From assembly GCF_038562415.1 (NCBI RefSeq), contig NZ_JBCFBA010000027.1:1847-65846 (forward strand): DNA of 64,000 nucleotides, given 5' to 3'. The DNA is from Solidesulfovibrio sp. Its GTDB lineage: Bacteria; Desulfobacterota; Desulfovibrionia; Desulfovibrionales; Desulfovibrionaceae. The position numbers were made by a program, and so were the translations under genes. How positions within the stretch are numbered: position 1 is the first letter of the stretch; the number at the start of each line of letters is the position of its first letter. This document shows, in pieces, positions 22,613 to 38,169 of the stretch. Below the pieces are notes generated by a model. It did no database searches, was not told the DNA's origin, and saw only the letters and a program-made list of their open reading frames with translations.

Positions 22613-23409
22613 AAACGCCCTTCCCCAAGGCTCTGCTGGCCCGCGTCGACGGCGCCGCCTGGCTGGCCATGGCCGGCTTCATGGCCTGGCTGCCCCTGGC
22701 CGGCGACTACTGGATGTTTCTCAATCCCAAGTTCAAACCCGTCACCCTGTCCGCGGCCATGGTCCTGGGCGTGCTGGCCGCCTACGCCTTGTGGCGGCCC
22801 GTCTCCCGGCCAAGCTGGGGGCGCTGCCTCGCCTACTGCTTCCTCGCCGCCATGGTCGGCCTGACCCACGGCGGCACCCAGGCCATCTCCGGCGAAATCG
22901 ACACCGACCCCTTCGCCGTGGCCCCCAGCCTGCCCGCCCCGCCCCCCGAAGCCGTCCCCACCCGCATGACGGCCGGCGGCAAGGAATATATTCCCATCAA
23001 CACCGGCGAACTCTTCGACATCGCCGCCAAGGGCCCCGGCGAGGCCTGGGACAAACCCTACGTCATGCGCGGCTTCGCCCGCCGCGATCCGGCCCTGGAC
23101 GCGAAAGGCGAATTCGTGCTCTTCCGCCTGGCCGTGTGGTGCTGCTTCGCCGACAGCACGGGCGTGGGCTTCAAGGTCAAACTGCCGCCCGGCGCCGAGC
23201 TCCCGGCCGACAAGGGCTGGGTCGTCGCCTACGGCCGGCTCACGGAAATGCCCGCCGACCAGCGCGGCGAATACACCCTGCCCGGCATGACCTTTTCGAG
23301 TATCGCCCCGGGCGCGCTGTTTGCCGCCGACCAGGTGGAGTCCGCCCCGGTGCCGGCCGAACAGGTCTACATGTACGAATGGCGGGTGGCGGAGCCGTAC
23401 GCGTATTAG
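22609..23409 (+). CDS. DUF1980/TIGR03943-like membrane protein (YcgQ-like partner of the DUF318 permease), 266 aa
   Basis: GTGA overlap; N-terminal TM helices (FLNPKF), C-terminal FRLAVWCCFADS motif. Confidence 0.75.
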   Translation: MKTPFPKALLARVDGAAWLAMAGFMAWLPLAGDYWMFLNPKFKPVTLSAAMVLGVLAAYALWRPVSRPSWGRCLAYCFLAAMVGLTHGGTQAISGEIDTDPFAVAPSLPAPPPEAVPTRMTAGGKEYIPINTGELFDIAAKGPGEAWDKPYVMRGFARRDPALDAKGEFVLFRLAVWCCFADSTGVGFKVKLPPGAELPADKGWVVAYGRLTEMPADQRGEYTLPGMTFSSIAPGALFAADQVESAPVPAEQVYMYEWRVAEPYAY

Positions 23410-23450
23410 GGAAGGAGAGACGGGGAGATTAGGAGAGAGGAGAGAGGAGG

Positions 23451-23505
23451 GAAGATGCCTCCGGCGGCCGGGGGGCATGATGCCCCCCGGACCCCCTCAA
23501 CGGGA
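23451..23505 (+). repeat. REP-like element copy
   Basis: gaagatgcctccggcgg-ccggggggca-tga-tgccccccgg-accccctcaacggga after a purine-rich tract. Confidence 0.85.
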
Positions 23506-23551
23506 AGGCGGGAAACGGGTGGAGGCGTGGTCGGTTGGCGGTTGTCCGTCG

Positions 23552-23623
23552 GCGAGGCCGGAATGGGGCCTTTCGGTGCCGTCGCTGCGCTCCTGGCTCG
23601 AAAGGCCCCGATTCCGGCCTCGC
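23552..23623. repeat. Long hairpin (24-bp stem, one bulge, 23-nt loop)
   Basis: gcgaggccggaatggggcctttcg ... cgaaaggccccgattccggcctcgc. Confidence 0.8.
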
Positions 23624-23778
23624 AGGGCCGTCGCCCCTTCGGGGCGAATTCTTGGACTTTAACTTTGAAAGCCTCTTTAAAGACAATGTAAAAGTTGTTC
23701 TTCAGTACAGCGCTTCGTCTAACGGCCGCCGTTCATAACTTCTTATTCTTCACATGCGGCGCTTCGCCGCTGGCGCTT

Positions 23779-23851
23779 GTGGTCGCGCAATCGCCCCGGC
23801 CGAACTGGCCGGCTTTGCGGCCTGCACCGGCCGGGGCGATTGCGCGACCAC
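23779..23851. repeat. Long hairpin (24-bp perfect stem, 25-nt loop)
   Basis: gtggtcgcgcaatcgccccggccg ... cggccggggcgattgcgcgaccac. Confidence 0.85.
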
Positions 23852-23899
23852 CACGACCGACGCCTCGCCGCTGACCGTTCCCGACCATACCTCCACCCG

Positions 23900-23956
23900 C
23901 CCCGTCGGGGAGGTCCAGGAGGGGATCATCCCCTCCTGGCCGCCGGAGGCATCTTC
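23900..23956 (-). repeat. REP-like element copy overlapping the cadR C-terminus
   Basis: Minus strand gaagatgcctccggcgg-ccaggagggga-tga-tcccctcctgg-acctccccgacgggg; the loop TGA (23926-23928) is the cadR stop. Confidence 0.88.
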
Positions 23957-24369
23957 CCCTCTTCGCCACCACCCACGTCCCGTTCCTCCAGTTCCCGCAT
24001 GATGCCGCATTCCTCCACGGGCGTGGTGCCGGTACAGCATTCCCGCAGTGCGGCCAATTGCTCGCGCAGCGCGGTGAGCCGGGCGATACGTTCGGTGATC
24101 TGGCCGATGTGCGAATCGAGCAGCACGCTCACCCCGACGCAGTCGCCGGCCGAACCGTCCTTGAGGGACAGCAGTGCCCGGATCTCGTCCAGGTTCATTT
24201 CGAGGGCCCGGCAGTTGCGGATGAAGGTCAGCCGGGCCAGGTGGCTGGCGTCGTAGAGCCGATAATTGCCGTCGGAGCGGGCCGGATCGGCGAGCAAGCC
24301 TTCCTTTTCGTAGTAGCGGACGGTATCCGGCCGACAGCCGGTGCGGCGGGCCAGTTCGCCGATGCGCAT
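23926..24369 (-). CDS. cadR: MerR-family Cd(II)/Pb(II)-responsive regulator (CadR/PbrR-like), 147 aa
   Basis: MRIGELARRTGCRPDTVRYYEKEGLL, GNYRLY, metal Cys in GDCVGV and ECC...ECGI; divergent from a P1B ATPase. Confidence 0.85.
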   Translation of the reverse strand: MRIGELARRTGCRPDTVRYYEKEGLLADPARSDGNYRLYDASHLARLTFIRNCRALEMNLDEIRALLSLKDGSAGDCVGVSVLLDSHIGQITERIARLTALREQLAALRECCTGTTPVEECGIMRELEERDVGGGEEGKMPPAARRG

Positions 24370-24392
24370 GGCAACCTCCCTCGAAAAAATCC

Positions 24393-24423
24393 TTGACCCT
24401 GGAGTAGCTCCAAGGTGTCTCAT
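24393..24423 (+). promoter_or_regulatory. MerR-type promoter/operator for cadA
   Basis: TTGACC, 19-bp spacer containing the dyad cctggag-tag-ctccaagg, then TCTCAT. Confidence 0.8.
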
Positions 24424-24451
24424 GGGGTCCGAAAAGGCAAGGAGGTTTTTC

Positions 24452-26710
24452 ATGCCGACGCACAATCCCGGCCATGCCCATGGCCACGATCATAAACTTG
24501 AAGAACTGCGGCCCCTTGACGGTCAGGCGCCGTGCTGTTGCGGCGGGGCGTGCGAGGTCGCCGGCGCACCGGCCCTGGACGACGGCCCGCCGCCCCGGGC
24601 CGCCCAACGCGCGCTTTTCCGCATCGAGGCCATGGACTGCCCCACCGAGGAGGCCATGATCCGCAAGGCCCTGGGCAGCATGCCGGGTGTGGCCGGCCTG
24701 CGGTTCAATCTGCTCGCCCGGGAGCTGACGGTGCACCACGATTTGCCGGACACGGTCGGCATCGTGGCGGCCATCGCGGCGCTGGGCATGGAAGCCGTGC
24801 CCGTGACGGCGGATGGCGCCGCGCGCCGGGATACCGGCGAGACCGGGGCGTGGGTGACGCCGATCCAGGCCGTGGCCCTCGTGCTGGCCGTCGTGTCCGA
24901 GCTGGCCGAGTGGCGCCAGTTCGCCGCGCCCTGGCTGCCGATCGCCTGCGCGGCGGCGGCCATCCTGGCCTGCGGGTTGCCCATCTACAAAAAAGGCTGG
25001 ATCGCCCTGTCCCGGCGCGAGCTCAACATCAATGCGCTCATGAGCGTGGCCGCGACCGGCGCCATCGTCCTGGGCCAGTATCCCGAAGCGGCCATGGTGC
25101 TCGTGCTGTTCGCCATTGCCGAGCAGCTCGAATCCGTGTCCCTGGCCCGGGCGGGCAAGGCCGTGACGGCGCTTTTATCCCTGGCGCCGGAGGTGGCCAC
25201 CGTGCGCCGCGACGACGGCTCTTTTGCCGAGATATCGGCCAAGGATGTGGCCGTGGGTTCGGCCATCCGCATCCGCCCGGGCGAGCGCGTGCCGCTTGAC
25301 GCCGTGGTGGCCGAGGGCCGCTCGTCGGTGGACCAGTCGCCGGTCACGGGCGAAAGCCTGCCCGTGGAAAAGGCGCCGGGCGATGCGCTTTTCGCCGGCA
25401 CGATCAACCAGGAAGGGGAGCTTCTGGCCACGAGCACGGCCCTGGCCGACGATGCGACGATCGCCCGCATCACCCGGGCGGTGGTCGCCTCGCCGGGCAA
25501 GGAAGCGGCCATGAAGCGCTTCGTGGACCGGTTCGCGGCGGTCTACACCCCGGCGGTCTTTGCCGTGGCCGTAGCCGTGGCCGTGCTGCCGCCGCTGGTT
25601 TTCGGGGGGAGCTTCGCGGACTGGGTTTACAAGGGGTTGGTGATCCTGGTCATCGCCTGCCCCTGCGCCCTGGTGATTTCCACGCCGATCTCGGTGGTCA
25701 GCGGTCTGGCGGCGGCGGCGAGGCGCGGCATCCTGGTCAAGGGCGGCCTGTTCCTGGAGCGCGGCGGCTCGCTTCGGGCCGTGGCCCTGGACAAGACCGG
25801 CACCGTGACCACGGGCCGGCCGGTGCAGACGGATTTCGAGAGCCTCACCGGCGATCCGGAGGGCAACCGGGCCGTGGCGGCGAGCCTGGCGGCGCGCTCG
25901 GACCATCCCGTGTCCCGGGCCGTGGCCCAACGGGCCGGACAGGACGGCATCGTGCCCGGCCACGTCGAGGACTTCACCGCCCTGCCGGGCCTGGGTGTGC
26001 GCGGCGTGGTGGACGGGAACGCCTACCATCTGGGCAACCACCGGCTCATCGAGGAACTGGGGCTGTGTTCGCCGGCCATTGAGGCGCGCCTGGACGCCCT
26101 GGAGGAAGCCGGCAAGACCACGGTGCTGCTGGCCGACGCGCGAGGCGTCCTGGCCATCTTCGCCGCCGCCGACGCCATCCGGCCCCACAGCCGGGAGGCG
26201 GTGGAGGCGCTTTCGCGCCTGGGCGTGGCCACGGTCATGCTTTCCGGCGACAATGCCCGCACGGCCACGGCCATCGCGAAAGAAGCCGGCATACCCGAGG
26301 CCCGGGGCGACCAGTTGCCCGAGGACAAGGCGGCGGCGGTGGACGCCCTGCGGGCGGGGCTTGGCGGCAAGGGCTTCGTGGCCATGGTCGGCGACGGCAT
26401 CAACGACGCGCCGGCCCTGGCCCGGGCGGACATCGGTTTCGCCATGGGCGCGGCCGGCACGGACGCGGCCATCGAGACGGCCGACGTGGCCATCATGGAC
26501 GACGACCCGCGCAAGATCGCGGCGTTCATTGGCCTGTCCCGGGCGACCATGGCCATCCTCAAGCAGAACATCGCCCTGGCGCTTGGGCTCAAGGGGCTGG
26601 TGCTGGCGCTGACGGTGGCCGGGTACGGCTCCATGCTGCTGGCGGTTTTCGCGGACATGGGCACGAGCCTGCTGGTGATCGCCAACGGCCTGCGATTGCT
26701 GCGGCGCTGA
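24452..26710 (+). CDS. cadA: Heavy-metal (Zn/Cd/Pb) translocating P1B-type ATPase, 752 aa
   Basis: His-rich N-terminus, MDCPTEE metal-binding domain, TGES, CPC, DKTGT, SDHP, GDGINDAPALA; GGAGG RBS. Confidence 0.92.
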   Translation: MPTHNPGHAHGHDHKLEELRPLDGQAPCCCGGACEVAGAPALDDGPPPRAAQRALFRIEAMDCPTEEAMIRKALGSMPGVAGLRFNLLARELTVHHDLPDTVGIVAAIAALGMEAVPVTADGAARRDTGETGAWVTPIQAVALVLAVVSELAEWRQFAAPWLPIACAAAAILACGLPIYKKGWIALSRRELNINALMSVAATGAIVLGQYPEAAMVLVLFAIAEQLESVSLARAGKAVTALLSLAPEVATVRRDDGSFAEISAKDVAVGSAIRIRPGERVPLDAVVAEGRSSVDQSPVTGESLPVEKAPGDALFAGTINQEGELLATSTALADDATIARITRAVVASPGKEAAMKRFVDRFAAVYTPAVFAVAVAVAVLPPLVFGGSFADWVYKGLVILVIACPCALVISTPISVVSGLAAAARRGILVKGGLFLERGGSLRAVALDKTGTVTTGRPVQTDFESLTGDPEGNRAVAASLAARSDHPVSRAVAQRAGQDGIVPGHVEDFTALPGLGVRGVVDGNAYHLGNHRLIEELGLCSPAIEARLDALEEAGKTTVLLADARGVLAIFAAADAIRPHSREAVEALSRLGVATVMLSGDNARTATAIAKEAGIPEARGDQLPEDKAAAVDALRAGLGGKGFVAMVGDGINDAPALARADIGFAMGAAGTDAAIETADVAIMDDDPRKIAAFIGLSRATMAILKQNIALALGLKGLVLALTVAGYGSMLLAVFADMGTSLLVIANGLRLLRR

Positions 26711-37686: not shown

Positions 37687-37744
37687 CCCGTACGGGGAGG
37701 GTCCGGGAGGGGGTCACCCCCTCCCGGCCGCCGGAGGCATCTTC
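37687..37744 (-). repeat. REP-like element copy overlapping the PqqD-like gene C-terminus
   Basis: Minus strand gaagatgcctccggcgg-ccgggaggggg-tga-ccccctcccgg-accctccccgtacggga; the loop TGA (37714-37716) is the gene stop. Confidence 0.88.
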
Positions 37745-38169
37745 TCTCCCGTCTCCCGCTCTCCCGTCTCCGTCTCCCCTCCCGCCACGGCCACGGCGCC
37801 GCGCCGGCCGAGCTGGCGCAGGAAGGCGGCCACGGCCAGCTCGGCCTCGCGGGCATCCAGGCCGTAGCGCGCGGCCAGGGCGGCGGCGATGTCCCCGGCC
37901 GTGCGCCGGCCGTCGATGAGCCGCCACACGGCCGAGCCCATGGCGTCGAGTTCCACGGTTTTGCGCAGCACCCGGCCGTCCCACAGCCCCAGCCGCCGGG
38001 CCAGGCCGGACAGGGCCGGCCGCACGGCCACGGGCAGCGACAGCCGCACCAGCCCGTCGGCCGTCTCGGCGACGCCCACGTCGCGGCTGGCCACGGGGCG
38101 CAGGGCCAGGGCCTGGCGGCGGGTCAGCCCGCCCTCGGCCGGCGGGGCGGGCTTTTTAAAGGGAAACAC
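37714..38169 (-). CDS. PqqD/RRE-like domain protein
   Basis: VELDAMGSAVWRLIDGRRTAGDIAAALAARY...FLRQLGRRGAV winged-helix pattern of PqqD; overlaps the upstream gene by 14 bp. Confidence 0.75.
   Translation of the reverse strand: MFPFKKPAPPAEGGLTRRQALALRPVASRDVGVAETADGLVRLSLPVAVRPALSGLARRLGLWDGRVLRKTVELDAMGSAVWRLIDGRRTAGDIAAALAARYGLDAREAELAVAAFLRQLGRRGAVAVAGGETETGERETGEKMPPAAGRG

Follow-up and report, generated by a model that had tools for sequence, protein, structure and literature searches.

How does the gene of a MerR-type regulator come to end inside a dispersed repeat, with its stop codon in the loop of the repeat's own hairpin? This is the arrangement at the 3′ end of cadR in the window, by which we mean the whole 64,000-nt stretch of Solidesulfovibrio sp. 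DNA that was analysed. A preliminary description of the locus offered two answers: either insertion of the repeat replaced the native stop and added a standard basic tail to the protein, or the geometry couples translation termination to melting of the hairpin. We examined the gene and its product, the repeat family throughout the genome, and the corresponding loci of relatives.

The cadR gene and its 3′ end

The cadR coding sequence occupies 24369..23926 on the minus strand (147 codons plus TGA, 147 aa), with its ATG at 24369 and a GGGAGG 5 nt on the 5′ side of it. Its product scores 160 bits against the TIGR02047 CadR-PbrR profile (cut-off 151.45), with residues 1-127 aligned to profile positions 1-127 of 127, and is matched by Pfam MerR_1, MerR-DNA-bind and MerR; judged by these matches, the ORF is a genuine CadR/PbrR-type MerR regulator. 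The conserved domain, delimited by profile and alignment (residues 1-127; 23989..24369, minus strand), contains the HTH, the dimerisation helix and C77, C112 and C121, which are invariant in an alignment of 30 homologues, so that domain and metal-binding cysteines are those of CadR/PbrR regulators. The neighbourhood also appears to follow the layout of the family, in which the gene and that of a P-type ATPase are divergent and a dyad stands between them. The divergent ORF on the plus strand (24341-26710) has a His-rich N-terminal stretch, from which it is expected to encode a putative heavy-metal P-type ATPase. The spacer that separates this ORF from cadR holds a dyad, ACCTTGGAG-cta-CTCCAGGGT (24396-24416, minus-strand reading), at the place where a MerR-type operator would be expected; it is a candidate operator.

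Beyond the domain, the protein continues through a lineage-specific linker, EERDV (residues 128-132; 23974..23988, minus strand), shared only by the closest relative, as EERGV, and then into the part of the gene that overlaps the repeat. An AlphaFold2 model, predicted with a 30-sequence alignment, has a long helix at residues 77-114 and a last helix at 122-132; the block means of pLDDT are 86-98 over residues 1-110 and about 60 over 111-130, and pLDDT is below 50 at residues 133-147. The tail of some 15-20 residues is thus predicted to be disordered and to lie outside the CadR/PbrR domain. C-terminal tails are variable in this family; that of Pseudomonas putida CadR is His-rich, and the repeat-derived tail of the Solidesulfovibrio sp. 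protein is without His or Cys.

Read on the minus strand, cadR ends GAA CGG GAC GTG GGT GGT GGC GAA GAG GGG AAG ATG CCT CCG GCG GCC AGG AGG GGA TGA, followed by TCCCCTCCTGG. The stop TGA (23928-23926) forms the 3-nt loop of an 11-bp hairpin, hairpin 1 (23915..23939 as a whole), between a 5′ arm CCAGGAGGGGA (23939-23929, minus strand) and a 3′ arm TCCCCTCCTGG (23925-23915, minus strand), and the centroid fold of the cadR end consists of hairpin 1 alone, at -23 kcal/mol. On the 5′ side of the stem stand a purine-rich leader, GGTGGTGGCGAAGAGGGGAAG (23953..23973, minus strand), which is stop-free in every frame and is read as GGGEEGK, residues 133-139, and the repeat head, (AT)GCCTCCGGCGG (23940..23952, minus strand), read as MPPA...; the final 6-8 nt of the leader are part of the conserved GRARGAT prefix of the repeat. 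On the 3′ side follow an ACC(T) linker and a small hairpin 2, CCCC-GAC-GGGG (23900..23914, minus strand), and a 3′ extension, CGGGTGGAGGTATGGTC (23883..23899, minus strand); in the minimum-free-energy fold hairpin 2 appears and the GGAGG of the extension pairs with the CCUCC of the head.

The final 9-10 codons of cadR and its stop come from the repeat element, and the GGGEEGK leader codons were probably supplied by it as well. The codon-usage score is positive for the cadR frame as far as the leader. Read directly, the 75 nt that precede the hairpin loop are free of TAA, TAG and TGA in every frame, which bears out the original observation that cadR has no stop ahead of the element. The gene was also correctly said to end at the TGA that forms the hairpin loop, the coordinates given for the overlap (23926-23956) are right, and the geometry of ORF and hairpin agrees that the repeat provides both C-terminus and stop of CadR.

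A repeat family of gene 3′ ends

The 16-nt head GATGCCTCCGGCGGCC occurs eight times in the 64-kb window where 0.4 occurrences are expected. When a canonical copy is defined as a head with at most one mismatch and a perfect hairpin immediately after it, the genome (5.07 Mb, 66% G+C, 51 contigs) holds about 165 copies, laid out as a purine-rich leader, GATGCCTCCGGCGG, hairpin 1, ACC and the small hairpin 2. Across the 165 copies, the leader is 70-98% purine per position from about -30 to -2, with few T, and is followed by the conserved GRARGAT prefix and then the head GCCTCCGGCGG. Hairpin 1 is 7-12 bp long and has at least 17 different stem sequences, all self-complementary; TGA is its commonest loop (73 copies), its conserved 5′ flank is (G/A)ATGCCTCCGGCGG, and ACC(T/C)CCC comes after it. 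Hairpin 2, as CCCC-N3-5-GGGG, is present in 140 of the 165 copies compared with 24 of 165 shuffled tails. The subfamily that includes the cadR copy has the extension GGGTGGAGGCGTGGTC, whose GGAGG can pair with the head; a GGAGGC able to do so 20-30 nt after hairpin 1 is found in 24 of 165 copies against 12 in shuffles, amounting to weak terminal inverted repeats. In a 121-genome sample of the bacterial family, a 21-nt repeat pattern is abundant only in the three genomes of the window's genus (77, 29 and 10), with one or two matches each in six genomes of other genera and zero in the remainder, so that the repeat is almost confined to Solidesulfovibrio among the genomes sampled.

A same-strand gene stands directly upstream of 132 of the 165 copies (80% sense; binomial p = 3e-15), and co-directional spacers contain 69 sense and only 23 antisense copies (p = 1.7e-6). 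Divergent spacers hold just 2 of the 165, the other 163 being placed behind at least one gene end. The distance from the upstream gene's own stop to the head has a median of 29 nt (interquartile range 21-35), the gap being filled by the GA-rich leader with few T, and in 111 of about 120 co-oriented genes the stop is well upstream of the repeat, at this median of 29 nt. Examples in the window lie at 23426-23532 (+), 13962 (+), 3202 (-), 29435 (-) and 37726 (-). The repeat is thereby shown to be an element of gene 3′ ends, and it looks like a 3′-end signal or REP-like family of the genus, hitherto undescribed: the literature searched yielded no description of it, and a motif search gave one unrelated hit. 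From its placement and orientation, it most likely acts in the transcript as a 3′-end hairpin, which would stabilise the RNA or serve as a non-canonical signal for termination or processing.

Several individual copies deserve mention. The first of the window examples (23426..23532, plus strand; leader, head at 23457-23467, hairpin CCGGGGGGCA-TGA-TGCCCCCCGG, then extension) is the second copy in the cadR/DUF1980 convergent spacer and is in the usual position, behind the convergent gene, whose stop is 50 nt before the head (C25:25303). Two long perfect palindromes, 23779-23851 and 23552-23623, lie between the two repeat copies of this spacer. In the deeper-branching genome G003, one of the rare divergent-spacer copies (G003:C1:3356471-3356491, +) sits in the cadR-cadA spacer, about 37 nt upstream of the cadR start (3356036-3356434, -). 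For 35 of the 165 canonical copies the flank runs off the contig end within about 1 kb, and several copies are within a few hundred bases of contig ends (C5:91, C13:164, C16:158, C37:110, C39:86); the repeat, or clusters of it, appears to break the draft assembly. After the copy at C9:104926 comes a long poly-G run, apparently an assembly artefact.

The nearest known counterparts are the REPs, which are found chiefly 3′ of coding regions (Di Nocera et al. 2013, PMC3733652) and whose termini often give a stop codon to flanking ORFs (PMC3733652). Like a REP, the Solidesulfovibrio element is a short extragenic palindrome of high copy number found mostly 3′ of genes. It shares with the GTAG/CGTC-tagged REPs of Proteobacteria a short, G+C-rich palindrome that bears a conserved tag at one of its ends, a complement of about a hundred to a few hundred copies, a preference for the spacers downstream of coding regions, mostly between co-directional and convergent genes, and the capacity of copies that touch or overlap ORFs to donate a stop, as happens at cadR (PMC3733652). 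Unlike REPs, it has GCCTCCGGCGG for its tag, a purine-rich leader and a second small hairpin, its copies are 80% sense, no RAYT gene was found in the genome, and its stop comes from the loop whereas that of REPs comes from the terminal tag. A RAYT/REPtron identity was rejected on two grounds: the GTAG or CGTC tag is absent from the palindrome ends, and the sole PF01797 match in the genome (C47:85989-86342) is IS200-like, with no repeat copy within 5 kb. The region around that match (C47:85000-87000) is a low-G+C patch unrelated to the repeat, carrying an IS200-type transposase with its own flanking hairpins and adjoining remnants of another transposase. The repeat therefore resembles a REP in placement and structure, yet fails two defining REPtron features, tag and RAYT.

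Other identities fared no better. Intrinsic terminators that overlap a stop codon resemble the cadR end in that a G+C-rich stem-loop closes the ORF and the terminating ribosome competes with the hairpin. Unlike them, the repeat has ACC(T/C)CCC and no U-tract after its hairpin, and it conserves an 11-nt head for which a terminator has no need. We accordingly rejected an intrinsic (Rho-independent) terminator, the hairpin being present but the U-tract absent and the tail C-rich, and a consensus terminator scan of 23350-24450 found 0 terminator-like sites. There was no Rfam match, and a permissive scan of 23300-24100 gave chance-level miRNA-type matches on the palindromes alone. A mini-ORF, comprising an SD-like leader, a peptide and a stop, was also discarded: the T of its ATG is present in just 110 of the 165 copies, and the CCGGGGGGCA subtype is without an in-frame loop stop.

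Captured reading frames and the history of the stop

To find further genes that end within the repeat, we scanned the genome in six frames for open frames ending in either of the two peptides that lead to the loop TGA (..MPPAA(G/R)RG from the CCAGGAGGGG and CCGGGAGGGG subtypes, ..ASGGRG(A/G) from the CCGGGGGG subtype), judging coding potential over the preceding 80 codons. About 95 open frames end in repeat peptides, only six of them, from unrelated genes, with coding potential: CadR, a PqqD-like protein (window 37714-38169), a CobB/CobQ-type amidotransferase, a class-V aminotransferase, a radical-SAM/SPASM protein and a GGDEF protein. The Pfam or NCBIfam domain of all six proteins stops 15-43 residues short of the C-terminus. 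The KMPPAA(R/G)RG-type tail is found on three of them and the other-frame ASGGRG(A/G) tail on the other three, while a few more genes enter the repeat in frames without a loop stop and run on. A proteome-wide tag carried by many proteins was thus rejected, with only 6 of about 95 frames having coding potential, and the standard tail of the preliminary description dwindles, in the genome-wide search that it proposed for proteins ending KMPPAA[RG]RG, to three proteins. Repeat-derived tails are rare accidents. Nor does the loop offer a fail-safe, an in-frame back-up for genes with a stop of their own: among 59 such cases its TGA or TAA shares the frame of the upstream gene in 18, the level expected by chance (p = 0.68 against one third).

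Among database homologues of CadR, seven proteins that are 64-88% identical to it (P0002-P0005, P0011, P0012 and P0015) end (K/R)(M/T)P(P/A)AAG(R/K/W)G after linkers that vary in length and sequence, and two of these are annotated with the repeat tail in NCBI or UniRef. We compared the DNA of cadR loci from 23 genomes of the genus. The repeat, with its head 22 nt before the stop, is present in all orthologues that have the peptide, and a search for orthologues that share the peptide without the repeat, which the preliminary description had named as telling against its reading, found none; all orthologues ending (K/R)MPPAAGRG carry the repeat.

In a tree built on the conserved core, the window genome's locus (L001) falls in a clade of seven species representatives, L001-L007 (support 93/95), five of which (L001, L003, L004, L006 and L007) use the loop stop. 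In L005 the repeat has decayed, the loop TGA has become TCA, and the ORF is 8 codons longer and ends TAA. L002, the sister of L001 (93% identical protein), ends ...EERGVGGGGD-TGA and has no repeat; from 74 nt past its stop, its flank matches contig C30 of the window genome at 92% identity. The convergent DUF1980-type gene that neighbours cadR downstream in L001 is present too in L003, L005, L006 and L011, and BLAST aligns the 182 nt immediately past the stop of L001, long palindrome included, with L004 at 79% identity. Since neighbour and post-stop stretch are common to relatives, the L001 arrangement is the older one and the L002 state is derived, after rearrangement, and the L002 stop was for this reason rejected as the ancestral cadR stop. 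Recombination between repeat copies was likewise rejected as the cause of that rearrangement, there being no copy at the matching site in the window genome. The palindrome downstream of cadR (23779..23851, no strand assigned), read in the sequence, lies within the stretch homologous in L004, so that the composite of repeat, extension and long palindrome predates the Solidesulfovibrio sp. of the window.

On this comparison, the repeat-supplied stop is ancestral to the L001-L007 clade, within which no ancestral stop survives. The alignment of orthologues that had been proposed to locate the ancestral stop thus places the element-supplied stop at the base of the clade but finds no ancestral native stop there, and as the whole clade is already derived, the actual event, be it stop loss, deletion or insertion, is not reconstructable. 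Beyond the clade, the gene of L012 stops at a TAG of its own, with a GA-rich leader after it and the repeat 22 nt further on. Its sister L011 reads into the repeat; the two differ in frame as well as in stop. L008 and L012 both end DGAA-TAG, and L009 and L010 are short and without the repeat. In the deeper lineages, L013-L022, CadR has a conserved Cys-rich tail, C-x-G-D-x-G-S-L-C-G-R, and the 3′ end of the gene is free of the repeat. A CxxC-x-R-Y motif is found between domain and repeat in L003-L007. Judging from their sequences, the Cys-rich tail of L013-L022 and the CxxC motif of L003-L007 may be extra metal sites; the window CadR and its sister are without either.

The PqqD-like gene, which has the repeat behind it across the genus, gives a second view of such a stop. 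In four species (L030, L038, L041, L043) the gene has a stop of its own, 8-29 nt short of the head. The loop stop is used in six relatives (L026-L028, L031-L033) and in the Solidesulfovibrio sp. genome of the window. L040, with another subtype and in another frame, reads ...EECLRRPKG and then the loop stop, and L034 reads through in the third frame. An own stop 8-29 nt upstream in some species and the loop stop in others point to movement of the stop, or rearrangement of the 3′ end, beside a pre-existing element. From these alignments, the repeat is a long-lived resident at orthologous sites, relative to which the position of the stop changes.

The peptide can be set against the DNA that encodes it. 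Seven other copies in the genome match the 50-nt repeat core within cadR exactly, five of them listed with flanking genes and each of these five behind the upstream gene's own stop, and a 67-nt stretch to ...GGGTGGAGG is identical between the cadR copy and three others; the repeat DNA of cadR is the same as that of non-coding copies. The orthologous copies of L004, L007 and L011, unlike the cadR copy of the Solidesulfovibrio sp. genome, carry CCGGGAGGGGG-TGA-CCCCCTCCCGG, and AARRG versus AAGRG among CadR orthologues tracks the hairpin variant; the comparison suggests that copies are homogenised within each genome. In L003 and L006, MPPAAGRG has become TPAAAG(K/R)G, with the long stem kept via changes on both arms. 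As the peptide changed there while the stem was kept, and AARRG/AAGRG follows hairpin subtype, the constraint lies on the nucleic-acid element and not on the peptide, and the tail peptide appears to be conserved only because the repeat DNA is conserved. For annotation purposes the functional CadR ends near residue 130.

Origin and meaning of the overlap

We consider it probable that cadR was passively extended into a resident 3′-end element, and that the tail is a tolerated by-product that has not been put to use. The repeat would have been resident 3′ of cadR in sense orientation, lying, as it normally does, 20-35 nt behind a stop, and the clade ancestor would have lost the native cadR stop or had its 3′ end remodelled. 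Leader and head being stop-free in any frame, an ORF that loses its stop runs into the repeat, where one frame in three would end at the loop TGA, cadR being in that frame. A ribosome at the loop stop would have to open the 11-bp G+C-rich stem, with the 5′ arm opened and its footprint presumably over the 3′ arm; with both arms under the footprint, the hairpin could not exist while the terminating ribosome is present. Opening of the stem may slow or reduce release somewhat, expose the 3′ end transiently or reduce termination, and for a low-abundance, autoregulated MerR-type regulator any such effect would be easily tolerated. What argues against a mere by-product is that the overlap has outlasted the separation of at least six species-level genomes, and has done so in two genes, which leaves room for a selected effect.

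Such an effect could be a selected regulatory coupling, in which the loop stop makes formation of the 3′ hairpin depend on cadR translation; the hairpin would act via termination, exonuclease protection, or ribosome stalling and rescue, and ribosome traffic would tune CadR output or read-through into the downstream palindrome. Retention of the loop stop in five of the seven clade members, and at the PqqD-like gene in the window genome and six relatives, speaks for this, as does the strength of the hairpin (11 G+C-rich pairs, centroid -23 kcal/mol). There is a precedent in Escherichia coli, where REPs within about 15 nt of a stop reportedly stall ribosomes and lower protein yield via trans-translation. 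We nevertheless think it unlikely: L002 replaced the arrangement and L005 lost the loop stop, 111 of about 120 co-oriented genes keep their stop upstream with no enrichment of loop stops in frame, and the cadR copy is identical to untranslated copies. Of the coupling between termination and hairpin melting in the preliminary description, then, the melting stands, being physically unavoidable, but with 18 of 59 loop stops in frame there is no sign of selection for it. A related idea, that the repeat is a conserved non-canonical mRNA 3′-end signal whose loop stop has been kept at cadR and the PqqD-like gene because ribosome occupancy controls hairpin formation, is in our view improbable; if true, it would mean translation-dependent control of transcript 3′-end formation or stability.

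The exaptation named in the preliminary description, taken to mean that the basic tail KMPPAA(R/G)RG serves several proteins as a functional tag (for instance as a degron, for localisation or for an additional contact with DNA), is very improbable. The same peptide does end three unrelated proteins in the window genome and CadR orthologues that are 64-88% identical, and it brings net positive charge to a DNA-binding protein. But only three proteins have the KMPPAA-type tail, another three having ASGGRG(A/G) and other genes entering the repeat in other frames, so that six genes in all end in it; the tail is predicted to be disordered and falls outside the family profile; its DNA is the same as that of non-coding copies; and the peptide became TPAAAG(K/R)G in L003 and L006 while the hairpin was kept, was lost in L002 and was extended in L005, the last two doing without the tail. 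The companion claim, that insertion replaced the native stop, is not upheld either, the overlap being ancestral to the seven-member clade with no insertion event visible. A sequencing or assembly error, or a wrong frame, masking the true cadR stop is scarcely credible even though the repeat is near many contig ends of the draft assembly (35 of 165 copies), because with the final 75 nt stop-free in all frames a hidden indel could not give an earlier stop (base substitution alone could), the same junction recurs in the independent assemblies L003, L004, L006, L007 and L011 and in the proteins P0002-P0005, P0011, P0012 and P0015, and the coding score backs the cadR frame up to the leader.

Repeats are known to lengthen the 3′ ends of protein genes (Delihas 2011 review, PMC3184786), and overlaps in which a repeat supplies the stop have precedents among other bacterial repeats. 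As with repeats or MITEs fused in frame to the 3′ ends of other genes, such as the Rickettsia RPE, the Neisseria Correia and the enterobacterial and pneumococcal repeats (PMC3184786), a dispersed non-coding repeat has at cadR become the C-terminal extension of an otherwise normal protein. Unlike these fusions, cadR shows no sign of fresh insertion: the element occupies orthologous sites throughout the genus, and what moves is the stop. This shared occupancy speaks against a recent insertion.

For the proteomes of Solidesulfovibrio, this means that KMPPAA(G/R)RG and (D/E)ASGGRG(A/G) ends are repeat-derived and not conserved motifs or tags. The repeat family, with its sense bias, its tight distance from stops, its near confinement to the genus and no transposase partner found, is of more interest than the cadR overlap itself. 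The cadR and PqqD-like genes show how ORFs are captured by a stop-free 3′-end repeat when a native stop is lost, and that the captured tails can persist across speciation.
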